From NCBI GenBank assembly GCA_002269645.1, contig NIVC01002869.1, positions 62,001-126,000 on the forward strand: DNA of 64,000 bases, in the 5' to 3' direction. The translations under genes were made by a program, and so were the position numbers. This DNA comes from Macrostomum lignano (taxonomy: Eukaryota). The notes under the pieces are model-generated. The model was not told the DNA's origin. It was given only the letters and a program-made list of their open reading frames with translations, and made no database searches. Positions 13,141 to 56,000 of this stretch are shown here, in pieces; within the stretch, counting starts at the first letter, position 1; each line of letters starts with the position of its first letter.

Positions 13141-13160
13141 TGGTGATCTCGCCCAGGCTC
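13141..13160 (+). other. Primer binding site
   Basis: TGGTGATCTCGCCCAGGCTC, 2 nt after the LTR; its reverse complement GAGCCTGGGCGAGATCACCA fits tRNA positions 57-76. Confidence 0.88.
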
Positions 13161-13504
13161 AAGCGCTACCAGGCTAGATCGCTGAAAGTACTTTGACACA
13201 AGTCCTTTGCGCAAATTTTTCTGAACTTTTTACCGAACCGTCATTGTTTGCATAGAGACCCTTTGATTCTTCGTGCACCGTTTTATACTTTTGTTAAATT
13301 TGCGAATATCCTATCTCAATTTCTTTCTTTGGTAAAGGCAACACAGAATTTTTTTTGCCCCCGTGTCCATTTTTCTTTCTTCCTTTAAGTAAATAAGAGC
13401 TTGCACACACACACAACACTTGTTCGCCACTTTGAAAGTCCAATCTGGAAAATCCTTTGGAAATTGATCCAGATCTGGTCCTCTTGCCGTTCCCATTTGA
13501 AAAT

Positions 13505-16500
13505 ATGGCTCGAAGAAACCCTACAGTGCATCGCGATGTCAAGGAAACTGTTGGAATGTATACCATGGATAAAGATTTTAACACCTTCATTGAACACTTC
13601 GACCTTGTAACTCGCGAATACGGACTACAAAATCCAGAAAAGGCACTTCTTCTTCCTCCACTGTTAGAAGGTACTGCTCGAGAAATTTATGGCAAACTAA
13701 ATGCCGCCGCACAGCAAGACTATCATACTTTAGTTACACAACTGAGAGCACAATTCGCCAGATGTGGAACCAATCGATCTGTGCTTCTACACAAACTTCA
13801 TAATCGAAAAATGAGTCCGACGGAATCCTTCCTTACTTTCGTCGATGACGTCCGCAAAATTATTAAAGCGTTGCACCAGCCACCACCACCGAACCCAGGA
13901 GCTCAGCCTATCGGACCAGCAGAACTAGCTGCACGAGAAAGACAACGCCTTGCTGACCAAGAACAAAGCCTAATCCTCCATGTCATTAATAATGCTCAAC
14001 CTTCGCTGCGAGACAGGTTGTTAAGAGAAACCATTGAGACAGAGGAACAATTAATTCGTTGCGGCATGCAATGGGAAGCAAGTGCCCCACTCCTGACTTC
14101 TCGTAGTAGTGATACGACACAATTGGGAGAACAATTGAGCAAACTCATGCAGCAGTACCAAACTTCTGCAATCATGCCACAGCGACAGAGATACGCTCCG
14201 CCACCCACTTGTTACACCTGTGGAAGAATTGGTCATTACGCCAGAGACTGCCGATCACGTGGCAATCCAAGACAATATAATGACAACAGAAGAAAAAATT
14301 GGACTCGTCCTCAAAATCGCAATTGGAACCCACCACAGAATAGACAAGGAAATGCCTTGGTACCTTATCGACAACAAAGAAATCCTCCTCCTCCAAGACA
14401 GCCTACTCAGGTCCGCAGACAATATGCTCAAGCTATTGAACCGGAATACACTCAAGTCATCGAACCAGAGTTTAAGATAGAGGATCTTATGCCGGATTTC
14501 ACAATCAATGTCCTTGAGGAGTTTGAAAAACGAAAAGATAGCACAAGCAGCGAAAGTAGCTGCATGATGGATTCTCTGTTTGAAGAAGATCCACCCATTC
14601 CTACCTCTTCTAAAGCAAGTCCAGTCTCCCGAGAAAACAAAAGACAACAACAAACTATTTCTAAGCAACAAAGCAATCTATTTAAAGTTCCGACGATCGA
14701 CAATCTTTCGGAAACTCACCGAGATGACAATTTCCAGGATCGTAAAGAAATGACAACACTTGAAGAAGACAGAGATCCAGCAACTTCTCAAAACATCTTT
14801 GAAGAAAGCGTTGACATGTTGCAGGTCCTAGTCGACGATATAGACCTGTCAGAAACACCTCCAACACAGGAACCAGACTATGAAAATATTGTCTCCCCTA
14901 GTCCAGTCCACGAAAAATGGAAACATGACAAGGCCACGAACACACAATCTAACCATTCGACAGATGAAAAGTTCGTACAGACGGAGGATGACACATATGT
15001 TTCAATGAACCTAGACTATGAAAGCGAATATGATGAACCGATAACAATAATGGAACCGGTTAACACTCCAACTGATGAGAATACAACTACACATCTTACC
15101 AATATATCAAAATCAACCAACTTTATGCGTCCGATGTTGCAATCGCAGCCACCCACACCATTACCATGTTCTAACAAATGGCACTTTTCGACTCGCCTTA
15201 CTCCTCCGCCGTATCCTGAAGATAGTCATGACGAGATTGAAGACACTCCACCAGTACCAACAAGACGAAAGAAAAAACATCCGCTACTGCAATGCTTCCT
15301 CACGATCTTGATGATGGCAATTGTTCCCACGGTACTGCCGTCTCCATCTCCAATGATCTGTCCCACTGATGGAGACATCCAGCCAGTCATTTACAAGATT
15401 CCTACGGAAATCAAATGCAGTTACTTTAAGACAAACCAAACCAAGCCACTACCACTAACTATTGAAATATACAAAGCAAATACAAAGAAGCATCGACAAA
15501 TGGGAATTGTGTGCTTCCGAGACAAGGATGAAATTGAAAAGGTTTGGCTGGTACAATGGAACCGAATCAGGTATTGGCAAACTTCGATGATGGTATCACA
15601 AGAAGAATGCCTTCGGTGGAATCAAACTCTGTTTTCCGAAGATGGTCAATTAAAACTTCATGAGACGTCCGCCAGCGGAGCACAGCTATTTCGCACAAAA
15701 AATGTAGCCGATGGAAGATATGTCCATTATCATCAATCACGATGGCCTACATACTCAGTCTACAATAGCTACCTCATCCGAAATGTTTTATTCTACCACA
15801 ATCCATTTGACAACATGGAATCCTTACAGCTACCACTCGACCAGTGTCACTACAGCTCTGGATATTGTTCTACCCCTAACTACAACAAAGAAGAAGCTCA
15901 AAATTTACCCCTAGCACCGATTTATTTCCATGACTATCGATACCAAATTGAATATAGATCGGATTCCCGATATGAGGAGCCCAGCCGAACCCGCAAATAT
16001 TTCACTGCATGGGAAGTAAAAACTGAAATTGACTGCAAGCTGCAAAAATATCACACTGTTCAAGGGAAACTGCTATCTAACACCTTCCTTGCCGACTCAG
16101 GAGATTTGGCTCTTACATTTCCAAAGCAACCAAGCTACACACACTTGAAATGTAAAAACAAGGACGAGCAACTAATCCTCTCCGACCAAGAAATACCAAT
16201 CGCGCTTAAGGATATGGATAAGAATGTTTTCCTGAAGGTAGTAAATGGAACCTATCAGAGAAAAGATGTCATAGAACGACATAAGCGAGACCTACCTAAG
16301 CCTTCTCTAGTATCAGCACGCCTCGCTAATATCCAGGATCCACATCAACCTCAGTTCTATGTTCACATTCAACGTCTAAAACGTATCACTAACGACACTA
16401 CATTCCTCCCAGACCTACAAAATCCAGACCACACAAAAACAACAAATAAACACATTGCCACTGCACACGCCGAAACACAAACAACAAACGCACCACCTGT

Positions 16501-16531
16501 CGGTCATACGTACAACCTAAGACCTCGTTAA
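13505..16531 (+). CDS. 1008-aa Gag / spacer / signal peptide / truncated Env-like polyprotein
   Basis: ATG in good context (AAATATGG); Ty3-type capsid pattern (FIEHF...LLEGTAREIY...LRAQF...SPTESF); CYTCGRIGHYARDC at 14210-14251; hydrophobic segment after RRKKKH; Cys-containing ectodomain; RHKR furin site at 16277-16288. Confidence 0.9.
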   Translation: MARRNPTVHRDVKETVGMYTMDKDFNTFIEHFDLVTREYGLQNPEKALLLPPLLEGTAREIYGKLNAAAQQDYHTLVTQLRAQFARCGTNRSVLLHKLHNRKMSPTESFLTFVDDVRKIIKALHQPPPPNPGAQPIGPAELAARERQRLADQEQSLILHVINNAQPSLRDRLLRETIETEEQLIRCGMQWEASAPLLTSRSSDTTQLGEQLSKLMQQYQTSAIMPQRQRYAPPPTCYTCGRIGHYARDCRSRGNPRQYNDNRRKNWTRPQNRNWNPPQNRQGNALVPYRQQRNPPPPRQPTQVRRQYAQAIEPEYTQVIEPEFKIEDLMPDFTINVLEEFEKRKDSTSSESSCMMDSLFEEDPPIPTSSKASPVSRENKRQQQTISKQQSNLFKVPTIDNLSETHRDDNFQDRKEMTTLEEDRDPATSQNIFEESVDMLQVLVDDIDLSETPPTQEPDYENIVSPSPVHEKWKHDKATNTQSNHSTDEKFVQTEDDTYVSMNLDYESEYDEPITIMEPVNTPTDENTTTHLTNISKSTNFMRPMLQSQPPTPLPCSNKWHFSTRLTPPPYPEDSHDEIEDTPPVPTRRKKKHPLLQCFLTILMMAIVPTVLPSPSPMICPTDGDIQPVIYKIPTEIKCSYFKTNQTKPLPLTIEIYKANTKKHRQMGIVCFRDKDEIEKVWLVQWNRIRYWQTSMMVSQEECLRWNQTLFSEDGQLKLHETSASGAQLFRTKNVADGRYVHYHQSRWPTYSVYNSYLIRNVLFYHNPFDNMESLQLPLDQCHYSSGYCSTPNYNKEEAQNLPLAPIYFHDYRYQIEYRSDSRYEEPSRTRKYFTAWEVKTEIDCKLQKYHTVQGKLLSNTFLADSGDLALTFPKQPSYTHLKCKNKDEQLILSDQEIPIALKDMDKNVFLKVVNGTYQRKDVIERHKRDLPKPSLVSARLANIQDPHQPQFYVHIQRLKRITNDTTFLPDLQNPDHTKTTNKHIATAHAETQTTNAPPVGHTYNLRPR

Positions 16532-16662
16532 ATTATTCGCTTCATGTCCCCGTGTAGTGACCGGGATAAAGAATAGCACTACAGCTTCCTCAAGCTTGTC
16601 GTAAGAGGCGACTAAATCCTTGTTTTCCTACAAACGCTCACACAACTACGACAAACACGACA

Positions 16663-17313
16663 ATGGATTGTCCTATCTGTCTCGGAGAATTTTCATGTAA
16701 ACTACCTTGTATATGTGTCAATAGACACCAGGTGTGTGGTTCTTGCTTAAGCCTTGCACATTACAAAAAACCTTTAAAAAATTGCCCTATGTGTCGAGGT
16801 AATCTCCGTCAATGCATGATATGCAACTCCTGGCGCACTGAACAATATTGCTTAAATCAACATTTTATGTGCACACAATGTATTAAGAAGCTTGCTTATC
16901 GCTCCATTTGTCAGTGTCCTATATGCGATGCCACCCCTTTACCTAAAGTTAACAACAAACTTGCATGCATTCAAGCGGACTACAACCTACAGCTTCACCC
17001 ATTCACTTATGCTCTTTTTCCATCACATGCTATAATTATCCGCCTCAGATCATGGCCCATACCACGTGCTGCTCATAAAACACGTAAATACCTCGTTCGC
17101 TATTCCTCTTCCTACGGTTCTAGACTCCGGCAATTATCTCCACAAGAAATTGAACATAAGCTGTTTAAAATTGTTAACGATATGAATTTTCACCCATGCC
17201 CCATCCTCTGTACAGCTCTACCTGCACTCATTCTGCGTAATGAGGACTTGTCTTATATATTACCACCCCAAGAATCATATGACTATAATAGTTCCGCTTC
17301 AGAAATTGATTAA
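16663..17313 (+). CDS. Double RING-HC protein A (216 aa), putative E3 ubiquitin ligase
   Basis: Two C3HC4 arrays with C-x3-H spacing: C3,C6,C18,H22,C25,C28,C41,C44 and C51,C54,C63,H67,C70,C73,C85,C88; strong start context ACAATGG. Confidence 0.88.
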   Translation: MDCPICLGEFSCKLPCICVNRHQVCGSCLSLAHYKKPLKNCPMCRGNLRQCMICNSWRTEQYCLNQHFMCTQCIKKLAYRSICQCPICDATPLPKVNNKLACIQADYNLQLHPFTYALFPSHAIIIRLRSWPIPRAAHKTRKYLVRYSSSYGSRLRQLSPQEIEHKLFKIVNDMNFHPCPILCTALPALILRNEDLSYILPPQESYDYNSSASEID

Positions 17314-17385
17314 AATACCATGCACCCACAGATATTGCAACCATTCTTGCACAGATATTACTTATCAAATTGACCATTTTCAGAC

Positions 17386-17985
17386 ATGGATAGCGACGAG
17401 TGCATTGTTTGTTATGAAGACACTGAACAGTATGTCTACTGTCAGCATGGGCATAAGTTCTGCTATAACTGCTGCACAACGGATAGAATAGACAAATGCC
17501 CGCTATGCCGCGCACCACCTACCCTGTGCCAGGTATGCAATACAACACCGCAACAAAGGATGTGCGCCAACGGACACTGGGTCTGCCGAGATTGTGCTCT
17601 AAAAATTCGCTGCCGCGACTATAAGCATTGCATAACTTGTGCAGCGCCAATATCTAAGGAAATTTACGCCGGAACAACAACATTACCAAAGATCCAACTT
17701 ACAAAGGAGACCATGGACAGTATGACGGCCAAGGAACTAGCAACAGCTATACGAACCTGGCCAATACCATTCAACAAGAGAGACCATTTGGAATATCTTT
17801 TTGACTTGGTACGTCAATATGCGGCGCATCCAATAAATACTACGAGTACAACTGAAGAGATCTACCTGGAATTCCTCAACGCCACCGAATCAACACAATT
17901 TACGCCGATACAGCACTTACTGTGGCCACTCGCGAGATTGACAACCAAAGTAAACGATATACTGAATAATACGCTTTCCTATTAA
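17386..17985 (+). CDS. Double RING-HC protein B (199 aa), paralog of A
   Basis: C6,C9,C19,H23,C26,C29,C38,C41 and C48,C51,C60,H64,C67,C70,C82,C85; shares R[ST]WPIP with protein A. Confidence 0.88.
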   Translation: MDSDECIVCYEDTEQYVYCQHGHKFCYNCCTTDRIDKCPLCRAPPTLCQVCNTTPQQRMCANGHWVCRDCALKIRCRDYKHCITCAAPISKEIYAGTTTLPKIQLTKETMDSMTAKELATAIRTWPIPFNKRDHLEYLFDLVRQYAAHPINTTSTTEEIYLEFLNATESTQFTPIQHLLWPLARLTTKVNDILNNTLSY

Positions 17986-18163
17986 CAATAACAATGCATC
18001 CTGCCAAGCAACACAATAACAATGTGACCTACCTATCTACCTATCCATCTACTATACTACTACTGGTTCAAAATTTCTAATCCTTAAATACATTTTCATG
18101 TTTATTAGAAGATAAAACCCCACTTCACCGCTTTAACTTTAAAATTCGGGACGAATTTTTCGT

Positions 18164-18175
18164 GAAAAGGGGAGA
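18164..18175 (+). other. Polypurine tract, preceded by an 8-bp hairpin
   Basis: GAAAAGGGGAGA, 3 nt before the 3' LTR; AAAATTCG-GGA-CGAATTTT at 18141-18159. Confidence 0.88.
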
Positions 18176-18178
18176 TAT

Positions 18179-19095
18179 TGTAGAGAGTTATTAGACCATA
18201 CCGTAATGCTCTACTTAAAGTAATATTCTAAGGAAGTCAATTTCTTTCAAAATGAGTCATATCTATTTTAGGAATCACGCGCAAACAGAATGATTTAGAA
18301 CCCTACATTGTTTGATCAAGGAACCGGATTTCAACAGCTGTATTTGTTTAACTCCATATATGGTAATGCTCAAACATGCATGACCGCTTAATCAAACATT
18401 TTTGACCTAAGTAAATACCCAATCCCAAACCGGTTTTTCTCCAAAATTTTGCTATAAATATAAGTGAAAATTCAAGTCAAAATTCAGACTCGGAGCGGTC
18501 TCTAAGAAGACACCGAAGAAATAAGAAGACCAATCTCTGAGGGACCATCCCTGTCCAATTGGTAAGCGTTTACCCGATTTAGTTAATTGTTAGTAGCGCT
18601 AATAAAGTGATTGATTGAGTATACGAGAGCAGTTCATTGTCGATACATTTGAGAAAGGCCTCCTTGTTTCCTAGGATATTCCTAGAGGATTTATTGATTT
18701 AATTGAGTTATCCGTTACGTTTCGGACGTAACGAAGAAGCCGCCCTTCAGGAGGACCTATCACAGAAAATTAGAGAATTCAATTGTTCATTAGGGCGCAA
18801 GTTCTATTGTGAATTCCGAGCTCGAGGACCGTTAAGAAGTTCTGATTCGCTCTCGTTTGGTCGACCCACAGATAAAGTTAAGGACACCAAAGAAAAACAG
18901 TGGTTCACCGGAACCGGTCGCCGTAACCGCTCAGCAAGCTTGCTATCCCGACGCGCCACAGAACTCCACCGGCTGCCGACCCCAAGAGGATCCGCTGAAG
19001 TAAGTTATTTGAACTGATAAATACCTAGGCACTTGTTCCCCCGTGTCTAGAAGTGGGAGTTTTTGAGTGACTGATCACCACTCTTAAACTCTTCA
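18179..19095 (+). repeat. 3' LTR (917 bp)
   Basis: Direct repeat of 12222-13138 at an offset of 5957. Confidence 0.97.
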
Positions 19096-19449
19096 CTCGA
19101 TTCCAAGTGCAGTCGCATTAATTTGGGGCTGAATTGGAATCTCGGCTTGGCTCGCTTGTGCAATTAACGGCCTTGAGAGCCAACCCCCCAAGGCGCAGTG
19201 AAGTGTACATGCCTAACGATAATATAAAGTTAGGGCCGCTGTACACTCCTGTGTGAGTGTGTGCCTGCGTACGTATCCGCGCGCTTGTATGCCTGCTCAG
19301 GGGAGTCGGCGGAATGGGCAGCAATGCCTCTCGCCGGTTGTGTGCCTATGTCGCTTAAAGTGCGCCAGGGTGCACACAACCCCCTGCCTCTAATAATAAA
19401 AATAAAAATATAGATAGTGACTACAAACCCCGTGACAGCGGTTATAAAT

Positions 19450-19970
19450 ACCGTGACCTCGAAACTATAGTGGTCACAAATCACGTGAATTTGAAACTAT
19501 AATGATTGAAACTCACGTGACCTTAACTCTAGTAGTTATAAGTCACGTGACCTGAAACTATAGGGATTAAAAATCACGTGACCTGACCACTAAGTGGGTA
19601 AAAATCACGTGACCTATAACTATAGTGGCTATAACTCGCGTGACCTGAACTATAGTGATTAAAAATCACGTGACCTTGAAACGACAGTCGACAGTGCTCA
19701 CAAATCACGTGACTTTGAAACTATAGTAATTGAAACTCACGTGATCATAGAATTCTAGTAGTTATAAATCACGTGGCATTGAACTATAGCGGCTATAAAT
19801 CACGCGACATTGGACTGTAGCGGCTACGAATCACGTGACATTGAACTATAGTGGTTATAAATCACGTGACCTGAAAACTCGTGGGCGATTGAATAATGTG
19901 ACATGAAATTTAAGCGACAAATCCACGCAACCGGAAACTACGTAAATAATAACAAAATCACGTGACCTCT
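19450..19970. repeat. Degenerate 31-32-bp repeat containing TCACGTGA and ACTATAGT palindromes
   Basis: About 14 CACGTG or near-match cores at a regular 31-32-nt spacing. Confidence 0.85.
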
Positions 19971-20120: not shown

Positions 20121-22508
20121 TCAGAGCACGGACGAGTAGCGATGCGGATCTGCGTGAAGTTCAAGCCGCCTTGAAGCAGCGGCGGCTGACACGCCAGAAG
20201 TTGACGGCGATGCAGCGGCCGTAGCCGCACTGTTCCGCCAAAGCATCTGCGTGACCAGAGCCACCCTGTAGCGCTCGTAGGCGGACACAATGGCCTCAGT
20301 CTCTTCCTTGGCTAATCTGGTAAGCAGCTCGGCTGAGCGCTCCAGCTCGCCCTGCGAGAATAGTTGCCATTGAATTTTGGCGTCGTATTCTGGCGGAGCT
20401 TTGAAGTAAACCGCCAGGAAGGACTCCAGATCTGCGGAGTTGAAGTTCAGTATCTAATTGTTACAACCCTCAGCTTCCTGACCAGTAATGAAAAGAAGCC
20501 GGCATCAATGCAAAGCAGGGAACAGAGTCGGTGGGATGGAAGGGTGCAAAAATTTAGATAGAGGGCCGTCAAAACAGATATAGGAGGGAACACAGATGCA
20601 GAGCACGCAAAAATGGACAGAAGGGGCGCCAAAATGGATGACAAGTGGCGCCAAAAAGGGTGAAATAGGCGCCAAAATGGATGAAGTTAGCGCCAAAATG
20701 GATGAAAGAGGCGCCAAAATGGATGAAGTTAGCGCCAAAATGGATGAAAGAGGCGCCAAAATGGATGAAATAGGCGCCAATACAGATGAAGTTAGCGCCA
20801 AAATGGATGAGAGGCGCCAAAATGGATGAAAGAGGCGCCAAAATGGATGAAAGAGGCGCCAAAATGGATGAAATAGGCGCCAATACAGATGAAGTTAGCG
20901 CCAAAATGGATGAAAGAGGCGCCAAAACAGATGAAGTTAGCGCCAAAATGGATGCAAGAGGCGCCAATACAGATGAAGTTAGCGCCAAAATGGATAAAAG
21001 AGGCGCCAAAATGGATGAAATAGGCGCCAAATGGATGCAAAGGGCGCCAAAATGAATAAGCGGTATCCTAACGCAGCAGCAGATCTTGCAGTTATAACGA
21101 ATTGAAGCATGGAAAGTGTCCTCTGAGGCTCCCGGACTCCCGGACAGTCGCCGACTGCGTCCGGCAGCTCAACCTCATGGCCAGTGGCAATACTGTCAGG
21201 CTGAAGTGGATCCCAGGGCACGCAGGGTTTCCGGGGAACGAGCTGGCAGACACCCTCGCCAGGAGGGGCGGCTCTGGCTCCGTCTTTGGCCCTGCCCCCT
21301 TGGTCCCTATGCCTTCGACAGTCATCAATCGTCTGATCGATGACTGGGCTGACTCCCTTCACAGGGACAGATGGGCGGGCACCCAAAACTGCCGACAATC
21401 TCGTGCCGCGGTTCCGTGCCCCTCTCGTAGGCTCAGAAATGTCCTTCTAAAGCAAAATCGGAAGGATATCCGAGCCCTTGTCATGACCCTCACCGGCCAT
21501 GGCAACCTCGCCAGGCACTGCTTCCTCCGAGGCGACCTCGAAAGTGAACTTTGCCCTTTTTGCGAGTAAGACAATGAAGATGCTCAGCACTTTGTCTGTC
21601 ACTGCCCTTTCTTTAACAGAGACCGGCTACGCTACCTCGGGCCGAACCCGTCCATTGACGAGGTCTGCCAGCCCGACAGCATCCCACGGCTCATCCAGTC
21701 CCTTCGGGCAACAAGACGAGCCACTTTCTTCCCCACGGAAGATCACGCTGCAGGACGGACCGGCGGACCACCCTGACCGGCCCCACGCCTCTGCCTGTCT
21801 GCGGGCCTTCAGGGGCTAGCGGAATGGGCGACCCTCGCCTCCCCGCTGTGTCTACGGACCACCCTGCAGCTGAGTCAAAAAAGTAAGTCAAAGTTCTCTG
21901 AGGCAAACGATGATGCCTGGCTCAGAAATGCACAATACCGTCTGCAATACAAGCAACAGTCAATTACAGACACTGTCAAAGTACGACAGCAAAACAATGG
22001 AGCTTGCAATACAGTTAAAATTTGCCTGCTTAATTTCGGGAAAGCCCATTGTTATAATGCAAAAACAATGAAATGCTTTAATAAAAAAACCTTCTATTGT
22101 TATCGCACAGTGATTTTTCAGCGAGATATTTTTTCCGATTTTGCCTTGCATTAATAAAATGAATTTGTCTGACTGCTATTTATATTCTGTTAAAAGGAAA
22201 TCATTTGAATTCGATCAAAGTTATATACGTTATTTTTCGATTGAGATTTCCTTGCCAATACGGTTTCTGTTTGAAATTCGAATAGTTACTTAGTAAAAAT
22301 TAAGGTTTTAAAATGATAGCTTTAAAAATGGCCTTTGGTATACTGCTATTATAAGTAGCATGCGGAAGATTTTCTGTTCCATAAATTATTTGCTACGTCT
22401 GCTTCTGGCGACTTACAGGGGCGGAAGGGAAACAAATGACCGCATCAAGACTCAAAAAGGACAAACAGACAGAGAACTGGGCGGAAAGACAGACAGACAT
22501 ACAGACAG

Positions 22509-53000: not shown

Positions 53001-56000
53001 TTTGCTCATCTATTTTCAACTCGAAGATCTGAGGCGCATTTTAGCCTATCTGAGCTACAGTCTAGCCTCAATCTGAGCTACAGTCTAGCCTCAATCTGAG
53101 CTACAGTCTAGCCTCAATCTGAGCTACAGTCTGGCCTCAATCTGAGCTACAGTCTAGCCTCAATCTGAGCTACAGTCTAGCCTCAATCTGAGCTACAGTC
53201 TAGCCTCAATCTGAGCTACAGTCTAGCCTCAATCTGAGCTACAGTCTAGCCTCAATCTGAGCTACAGTCTAGCCTCAATCTGAGCTACAGTCTAGCCTCA
53301 ATCTGAGCTACAGTCTAGCCTCAATCTGAGCTACAGTCTAGCCTCAATCTGAGCTACAGTCTAGCCTCAATCTGAGCTACAGTCTAGCCTCAATCTGAGC
53401 TACAGTCTAGCCTCAATCTGAGCTACAGTCTAGCCTCAATCTGAGCTACAGTCTAGCCTCAATCTGAGCTACAGTCTAGCCTCAATCTGAGCTACAGTCT
53501 AGCCTCAATCTGAGCTACAGTCTAGCCTCAATCTGAGCTACAGTCTAGCCTCAATCTGAGCTACAGTCTAGCCTCAATCTGAGCTACAGTCTAGCCTCAA
53601 TCTGAGCTACAGTCTAGCCTCAATCTGAGCTACAGTCTAGCCTCAATCTGAGCTACAGTCTAGCCTCAATCTGAGCTACAGTCTAGCCTCAATCTGAGCT
53701 ACAGTCTAGCCTCAATCTGAGCTACAGTCTAGCCTCAATCTGAGCTACAGTCTAGCCTCAATCTGAGCTACAGTCTAGCCTCAATCTGAGCTACAGTCTA
53801 GCCTCAATCTGAGCTACAGTCTAGCCTCAATCTGAGCTACAGTCTAGCCTCAATCTGAGCTACAGTCTAGCCTCAATCTGAGCTACAGTCTAGCCTCAAT
53901 CTGAGCTACAGTCTAGCCTCAATCTGAGCTACAGTCTAGCCTCAATCTGAGCTACAGTCTAGCCTCAATTTGAGCAAACCAAAGCAACCTAAAAGATGCG
54001 TCCTCACCAGAGCAGCGTGGGATTCTACAATTGCGCTGGCACTGTTCGCTGCATCAGCTGAGGCATCCCAGGCGGACTGCAGCTGCTGCAGCAGTCGATC
54101 TCGGGAGCCAATGTTTGAGAAGGTTACCTAAAAAAGTGTGACAAAAGAAGCATTTTTTATATTAAATAGTTAATGCAGATTGGCAAAGCTTATGACTCAA
54201 GTTATTTTTCTGATGCCCAAAACATAGTGACTTAGAGCTTTATGACATAGATCCTTATGACTCAGATCCTTATGAACCAGATCCATATGACCCAGATCCT
54301 TATGACCCGGATCCTTATGACCCAGATCCTTATGACCCAGATCCTTATGACCAAGATTCTTATGACCCAGATCCTTATGACCCAGATCCTTATGACCCAG
54401 ATCCTTATCACCCAGATCCTTATCATCCAGATCCTTATGACCCAGATCCTTATCATCCAGATCCTTATGACCTAGATTCAAATGACCTAGATTCTTATGA
54501 CCCAGATCCTTATGACCCAGATCCTTATGACCCAGATCCTTATGACCCAGATCCTTATGACCCAGATCCTTATGACCCAGATCCTTATGACTCAGATCCT
54601 TATCATCCAGATCCTTATGACCCAGATCCTTATCATCCAGATCCTTATGACCCAGATCCTTATGACCTAGATTCAAATGACCTAGATTCAAATGACCTAG
54701 ATCCTTATGACCCAGATCCTTATGACCCAGATCCTTTTGACCCAGATCCTTATGACCCAGATCCTTATCACCCAGATCCTTATCATCCAGATCCTTATGA
54801 CCCAGATCCTTATCATCCAGATCCTTATGACCTAGATTCAAATGATTTAGATTCTTATGACCCAGATCCTTATGACCCAGATCCTTATGACCCAGATCCT
54901 TATGACCCAGATCCTTATGACCCAGATCCTTATGATCCAGATCCTTATGACCCAGATCCTTATGACCCAGATCCTTATCATCCAGATCCTTATGACCTAG
55001 ATTCAAATGACCTAGATTCTTATGACCCAGATCCTTATGACCCAGATCCTTATGACGCAGATCCTTATGACCCAGATCCTTATGACCCAGATCCTTATGA
55101 CCCAGATCCTTATCACCCAGATCCTTATCATCCAGATCCTTATGACCCAGATCCTTATCATCCAGATCCTTATGACCTAGATTCAAATGACCTAGATTCT
55201 TATGACCCAGATCCTTATGACCCAGATCCTTATGACTCAGATCCTTATGACCCAGATCCTTATGACCCAGATTCTTATGACCCAGATCCTTATGACCCAG
55301 ATCCTTATCACCCAGATCCTTATCATCCAGATCCTTATGACCCAGATCCTTATCATCCAGATCCTTATGACCTAGATTCAAATGACCTAGATTCTTATGA
55401 CCCAGATCCTTATGACCCAGATCCTTATGACCCAGATCCTTATGACCCAGATCCTTATGACCCAGATCCTTATGATCCAGATCCTTATGACCCAGATCCT
55501 TATGACCCTGATCCTTATCATCCAGATCCTTATGACCTAGATTCAAATGACCTAGATTCTTATGACCCAGATCCTTATGACCCAGATCCTTATGACGCAG
55601 ATCCTTATGACCCAGATCCTTATGACCCAGATCCTTATGACCCAGATCCTTATGACCCAGATCCTTATGACCCAGATCCTTATGACCCAGATCCTTATGA
55701 CCCAAATGCAAAACTCGTAATGCACTGTAAGCCTCTCACCGCCCGCTGAGCCGTGGCGATTCTGATCCCGGTGGGAAACAGGGAGAAAACCTTCTCCTTG
55801 CAGATGGAGACGACGTCAGAGAATTTTAGTTTCACCTGATATCGTAATTGTGAATCAGTTTGCACTTTTGTCAGTAATCAATCATGTGTGAATGCCAAGG
55901 TAATGGTTCTGCAGCAAAACTTACCTCCGGGGTGAGGCTGGGCAGTGCCGGCCAGAAGCAGATGTGACGGCGAGTGATCACGATGGTGCCGCGTGCGGGC

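Follow-up and report, generated by a model that had tools for sequence, protein, structure and literature searches.

LTR retrotransposons of the Ty3/gypsy group with a GAG-ENV-POL gene order and an HSV/gB-type env have been described from Nematoda, Bryozoa, and Platyhelminthes (Chary and Hayashi 2026, PMC13524379). In the sections of that paper available to us, truncated elements are left out of the set, Sacco et al. 2022 is cited, and the use of a gB-type Env by single-polyprotein elements is treated in the discussion as an open question. As outlined in the available part of PMC4617298, the fusion loops of gB belong to domain I and its trimer helix to domain III, and the furin site is found in a domain II loop. 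A shortened element with a fusion ORF is known from the mouse, in which IAP 1-delta-1, an Env-less, betaretrovirus-like endogenous retrovirus (ERV) with Gag fused to Pol, is mobilized in trans and is transcribed and inserted more often than the full-length form, according to the accessible text of PMC6466679. Here, we describe a young LTR element of 6,874 bp at positions 12222–19095 of a 64,000-nucleotide stretch of Macrostomum lignano DNA (the window), which lacks pol and has only 2 mismatches between its 917-bp LTRs (Table 1). We conclude that this element is very probably an internally deleted, pol-less Ty3/gypsy copy that has reached five sites, likely by means of the protease, reverse transcriptase (RT), and integrase of its relatives, and that its half Env is likely a passenger.

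Both the element and its full-length parent have the TG...CA LTR ends, target site duplication (TSD), primer-binding site, and polypurine tract of a Ty3/gypsy LTR element; the complete set of Gag, Env, and Pol that marks an intact errantivirus is lacking in the window copy due to a 4,416-bp deletion. The main ORF (13505-16531) encodes 1008 aa, including a Gag zinc knuckle (Pfam, PF00098) at aa 235-250, and contains every motif listed in the first-pass annotation, i.e., RRKKKH at 15263, a hydrophobic stretch followed by MICP, cysteines, and RHKR (16277-16288), and then 80 residues and a stop. The hydrophobic 19-mer at 15284-15340 is the sole strongly hydrophobic one of the ORF (mean KD 2.06 versus 0.61 for the next best), and among the 34 homologous stretches listed, most have a similar segment ahead of Env. 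This segment is likely an internal signal sequence or signal anchor; because it has a proline-rich end, signal cleavage is uncertain in this lineage. The roughly 80 polar residues past RHKR are not an Env remnant; they comprise 9 Env residues, 2 shared residues, and 69 residues of the integrase C-terminus of the parent. The Env fragment matched 0 Pfam families, and a homologue search with it that considered longer proteins only gave 1 match among 1068 candidates. Elsewhere, the window contains tandem arrays at 1421-3370, 19420-19970, 20640-21050, and 54108-55750, with units of 24, ~30-40, ~20, and 15 bp, respectively, and the long ORFs within these arrays are likely repeat artefacts.

Table 1. 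Features of the element in window coordinates, with related Gag-only copies elsewhere in the genome in the last line
Feature	Position	Strand	Remarks
TSD	12218..12221	.	4 bp, CTCG; second copy 19096-19099
5' LTR	12222..13138	+	917 bp, TG...CA; holds GT-AG intron 12605-12914
Primer-binding site (PBS)	13141..13152	+	TGGTGATCTCGC
Gag core with CCHC zinc knuckle (aa 235-250)	13505..14260	+	
Polar linker, in frame	14261..15262	+	full-length parent has linker too
RRKKKH and hydrophobic segment	15263..15340	+	likely internal signal sequence or signal anchor
gB-type Env N-terminal half, domains I-II	15353..16315	+	furin motif RHKR 16277-16288
Likely fusion-loop hairpin tips	near 15545-15559, 15728-15748	+	placed by strand pattern of the model
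Mostly C262-like (second subfamily) alleles	15921-16237	+	inside Env half
Deletion junction	16316..16320	+	5-bp microhomology GCACG
Integrase end, last ~70 codons, past GPF motif, and stop	16321..16531	+	in frame
Accessory ORF, 216 aa, cysteine-rich	16663..17313	+	weak RING-type matches in sister copies only
Accessory ORF, 199 aa, RING finger	17386..17985	+	PF13920, E 7e-8
Polypurine tract (PPT)	18164..18178	+	
3' LTR	18179..19095	+	
3.2-kb Gag-only copies	C70, C1130, C3022 (L049/L050, L063/L064, L076/L077)		

The parent was found by searching the M. lignano genome with window positions 15200-16600, which gave 142 candidates, 40 of which were scored. Six of the scored matches were identical across the entire query; four others, at 94-98% identity, ended at query base 1124, and the remainder of the query matched at least 4.4 kb downstream. 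One copy, C717 (11,288 bp), is >99% identical to the window on either side of a 4,416-bp gap; its single ORF of 2,480 aa comprises Gag, the hydrophobic segment, Env, a second transmembrane segment (TM), protease, RT, RNase H, and integrase. In C717, Pfam detects the zinc knuckle, protease, RT, RNase H, and integrase, while PF24664 matches only the Env half that is deleted in the window (E 5e-5, below its cut-off). Thus, the PR-RT-RH-IN order with RNase H and integrase of the gypsy type is present in the parent and absent from the window copy. Env sits between Gag and Pol, and based on Foldseek, the profile, and hydropathy, it has a gB-type five-domain ectodomain (580 aa, including the furin motif) between two hydrophobic segments, the second of which lies at aa 1195. 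The copy C583 (~91% identity over the 5' part) shares this arrangement, also with an open frame, and in a simple motif scan, the same gene order was present in one protein in many of 69 database homologues (e.g., P0003, P0009, P0012, P0025, P0055).

The missing 4,416 bp encode the Env C-half, the TM anchor, protease, RT, RNase H, and most of the integrase. The deletion is in frame, has 5 bp of microhomology, and skips a segment with the ends GC..CG rather than GT-AG. In the Env half, the window copy and C717 differ at 12 synonymous and 6 non-synonymous codons, most of them within a recombinant stretch in the 320 bp ahead of the junction: 14/18 differing sites in 15921-16237 match C262, and the remainder is C717-like. 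This C717/C262 mosaic just ahead of the junction suggests template switching right before the jump, and the deletion itself may have arisen through template switching in reverse transcription. The first-pass annotation had proposed a distinct Gag-half-Env design; judged from these alignments, the window copy is instead a non-autonomous in-frame deletion derivative of a Gag-Env-Pol polyprotein gene. The parent resembles the GAG-ENV-POL elements in the accessible part of PMC13524379 in gene order and in having a gB-type Env between two hydrophobic segments, while the window copy differs from them in lacking pol and half of env. The PBS 12-mer of the window is the same as that of Mlig_errantivirus_2, which is listed there in a flatworm GAG-ENV-POL row; however, LTR length (917 versus ~863) and LTR spacing (10,375 versus 9,728 bp) differ between the parent and that element, suggesting, on sizes alone, that Mlig_errantivirus_2 is a sister family rather than the parent.

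The suggestion that the ORF contains a class III glycoprotein of the gB type, cut down to its N-terminal half and carried by an invertebrate LTR element, is borne out by profile and structure comparisons. A profile of 48 family members matches herpesvirus gB chains (EBV, VZV, and others) with E 4e-13 to 1e-7, and the match extends over the domain III-IV region. An AlphaFold model of the parent ectodomain (pLDDT 78, pTM 0.59) matches EBV gB in Foldseek with E 4e-20 over ~600 columns, yet with TM-scores of only 0.24-0.38, which may reflect the domain arrangement in the model. The modeled window fragment (pLDDT 83) is confidently folded over residues 31 to 300, making a stable soluble product plausible, and matches herpesvirus gB chains with E about 1e-8, a likeness to viral glycoproteins that the first-pass annotation had proposed to check with AlphaFold and Foldseek; in the viral library, its matches are to glycoproteins of nyamivirus, rhabdovirus, and chuvirus-like type. 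Using VIA, fragment residues 26-289 align to HSV-1 gB 137-456 (Z ~10, ~220 residues, rmsd ~6). Therefore, as far as the models go, the fragment is gB-like beyond chance, with the domain I-II fold predicted in the fragment and the whole-ectodomain fold in the parent, despite ~8-14% identity between the fragment and herpesvirus gB. Because the kept half aligns to gB domains I-II and domain I has the fusion loops, it is the fusion-loop half of the protein. Accordingly, two earlier descriptions of this half, as lacking a fusion subunit and as a receptor-binding subunit in a class I framing, do not fit.

Of the parts of a class III fusogen, the window copy retains domain I with its fusion loops, whose positions we infer from the model, and lacks the domain III trimer helix, domains IV-V, and the TM anchor. 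The long helix at 324-370 of the parent model and the TM at aa 1195 both fall in the deleted part, as noted earlier for the anchor, and the crown and the arm are lost as well. C3 and C22 at the start of Env are nearly invariant among homologues, and they presumably pair with C-half cysteines, as in gB, the two halves of which are linked by inter-half disulfides. In the profile, the C-half cysteines that align with those of gB lie in the deleted part; thus, C3 and C22 likely lose their partners through the deletion. The first 30 residues have a pLDDT of 76-82 in the parent model and 49-55 in the fragment model, a contrast that is weakened by the different alignments (35 and 48 rows) underlying the two models.

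An exact-pattern search of the genome found the exact junction at six loci and the undeleted junction at four; thus, the truncation is not private to the window copy, nor is it common to all copies. Because C2828 and C301 have a common flank, the six junction loci represent five independent insertions, with distinct flanks and the TSDs CTCG, CCGA, CTCG, GACG, and TCGA. LTR pairs in the five complete derivatives have 2 (window), 0, 1, 0, and 0 mismatches, the 1008-aa ORF and both accessory ORFs are open in 5/5, and the Env half is identical at all six loci. The complete reading frame is uninterrupted in just one of the four undeleted copies, C717; it is broken by stops or inserts in C2596 and C262, and C2129 is missing its 5' part. 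Thus, the same deletion with intact cis signals is present in several independent insertions, as is characteristic of a deletion derivative, and these five insertions compare with one open-frame full-length copy of the same subfamily plus one relative with 91% identity. Other deletion forms exist: a 3.2-kb Env-free form with a 268-aa Gag that keeps the zinc knuckle has three insertions, which argues that Env is not needed for spread, and a 4.7-kb form has one. The Env C-half has 141 matches in the same genome. At least three further families have the same Env region with ~65%, 27%, and 22% identity on many contigs, and several of their copies have open frames of ~2,450-2,870 aa. As a separate observation, CG is present in 5/5 derivative TSDs versus 5/31 at other LTR ends of the family (Fisher p ~7e-4, post hoc; a blind sample of 40 of the 130 LTR ends of the family, from which 8 duplicates and one 5' LTR were dropped), and the TSD of C583 likewise contains CG. 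This bias is unexplained and could reflect chance or a different helper integrase.

Four of 24 listed sequencing runs were aligned to C717. None of the listed runs is registered as RNA; three of the four, from three studies, were classed as RNA on the grounds that the 310-bp GT-AG intron in the LTR (window 12605-12914) is removed in these runs alone. The intron is kept in the fourth, a probable DNA run, and genomic copies retain it although the probable RNA runs show its removal. The 4,416-base joint was detected in all three probable RNA runs, two of which have long contigs with the window alleles, while pol was represented in these runs by a few short contigs only. Both the deleted and the undeleted form are present in the probable DNA run. 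Because this evidence consists of assembled contigs, it speaks to the presence of the joint rather than to its level, strand, or locus; on this basis, the derivative is probably transcribed. The deleted form is the form in which the Env half appears in the probable RNA runs, which counts against a pure-passenger reading. In the same three runs, a loose end is found at the place of the junction of the 3.2-kb form.

Downstream of the polyprotein gene, the family has two cysteine-rich accessory ORFs (L021/L022, L015/L016, L019); C391 has three and C583 two, while the sister family with 65% identity has a short accessory-ORF remnant. A database search with the RING ORF returned 0 homologues among 35 candidates. 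The words 'RING' and 'zinc' have 0 occurrences in the main text of PMC13524379, as does 'RING' in PMC5408684, and our literature search found no paper on RING/E3 ORFs in LTR retrotransposons. The products of these ORFs are possibly E3-ligase-like anti-host factors, and they are arguably more novel than the half Env.

How does a copy without pol reach five sites? RNA of the short copies is likely packaged and then copied with help from intact relatives, which would supply protease, RT, and integrase; several families in the genome have frames of 2,480-2,860 aa. By analogy with IAP 1-delta-1, the derivative's own Gag may favor packaging of its RNA in cis. In both cases, an in-frame internal deletion gives a fusion ORF; however, the cis effect of the mouse element was shown by experiment (PMC6466679, in the part available), while the derivative is known from its sequence. 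As for the protein, the hydrophobic segment would route everything downstream of it into the endoplasmic reticulum, where, lacking a second TM, the domain I-II fragment with its integrase tail would be released or remain anchored by the first segment. Without trimer helix and anchor, such a fragment would not fuse membranes, and because the Env half can neither trimerize nor anchor, we suggest that it is likely a passenger. The many open derivatives, the conserved ORF, and the probable transcripts fit a recent amplification, and they are also compatible with a role.

The first-pass annotation had envisaged such a role, either hijacking the fusion protein of a helper or blocking superinfection; nothing in our data points to it, given that the Env-free form has spread and that the likely partners of two conserved cysteines are gone. 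As the source of the short form, an assembly artefact or a retrocopied spliced mRNA can practically be dismissed: the family does splice an intron in its LTR and the assembly does contain duplicated loci (C2828 and C301), but the skipped ends lack GT-AG, for which reason splicing was rejected as the origin of the junction, the five flanks with their TSDs are distinct, and the junction recurs in the probable DNA run, which is from another study, and in the three probable RNA runs. It is also very unlikely that a distinct Gag-half-Env element recruits the fusion half of a helper for cell-to-cell spread. The truncation is common to five insertions and many relatives in the genome could supply an Env C-half, as the 141 matches attest; however, the architecture is that of a deletion with an integrase tail, helper particles would already have a complete Env, and gB-type halves derive from one chain and stay linked, with the furin site in a domain II loop (PMC4617298, in the part available).

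Somewhat less remote, though still improbable, is a role as decoy or dominant-negative inhibitor of the Env of the intact family, played by a domain I-II protein that the derivative would produce in stable form, either soluble or held by its signal anchor. The breakpoint lies 9-11 codons past the furin motif, and cleavage would therefore trim off the integrase tail; the fragment is predicted to fold, its ORF is open in every complete copy, and the joint is found in each probable RNA run. If furin-trimmed and secreted, such a gB domain I-II decoy would make the derivative a defective-interfering retrotransposon relative to its helper family, which we regard as doubtful to the same degree, and we found no invertebrate precedent for this in the literature searched. 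Truncated ERV Env restriction factors, such as FeLIX and suppressyn, resemble the derivative in having a signal and an N-terminal part of Env and no anchor. Refrex-1 is another factor of this type. These vertebrate precedents (PMC9245640 and PMC3598002, in the parts available) are class I SU fragments that bind receptors, unlike the derivative with its class III fragment, for which no receptor role is known. Moreover, the fragment lacks the trimer core with which to poison a trimer, the copies are young and mobile rather than a fixed single locus, and spread is also seen for the deletion form that has no Env.

Altogether, GAG-ENV-POL elements with a gB-type Env are already published, and the window copy is most likely an ordinary non-autonomous derivative of such an element. 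It provides a caution in that a truncation that looks neat at a domain boundary can be a deletion with a tail from integrase. If the derivative did encode a working decoy, it would be the class III counterpart of the truncated retroviral Env restriction factors. For M. lignano, our findings reveal a recently active GAG-ENV-POL family that is transcribed, based on the probable RNA runs, with deletion forms more numerous than the intact parent and with RING-finger accessory ORFs in its members.
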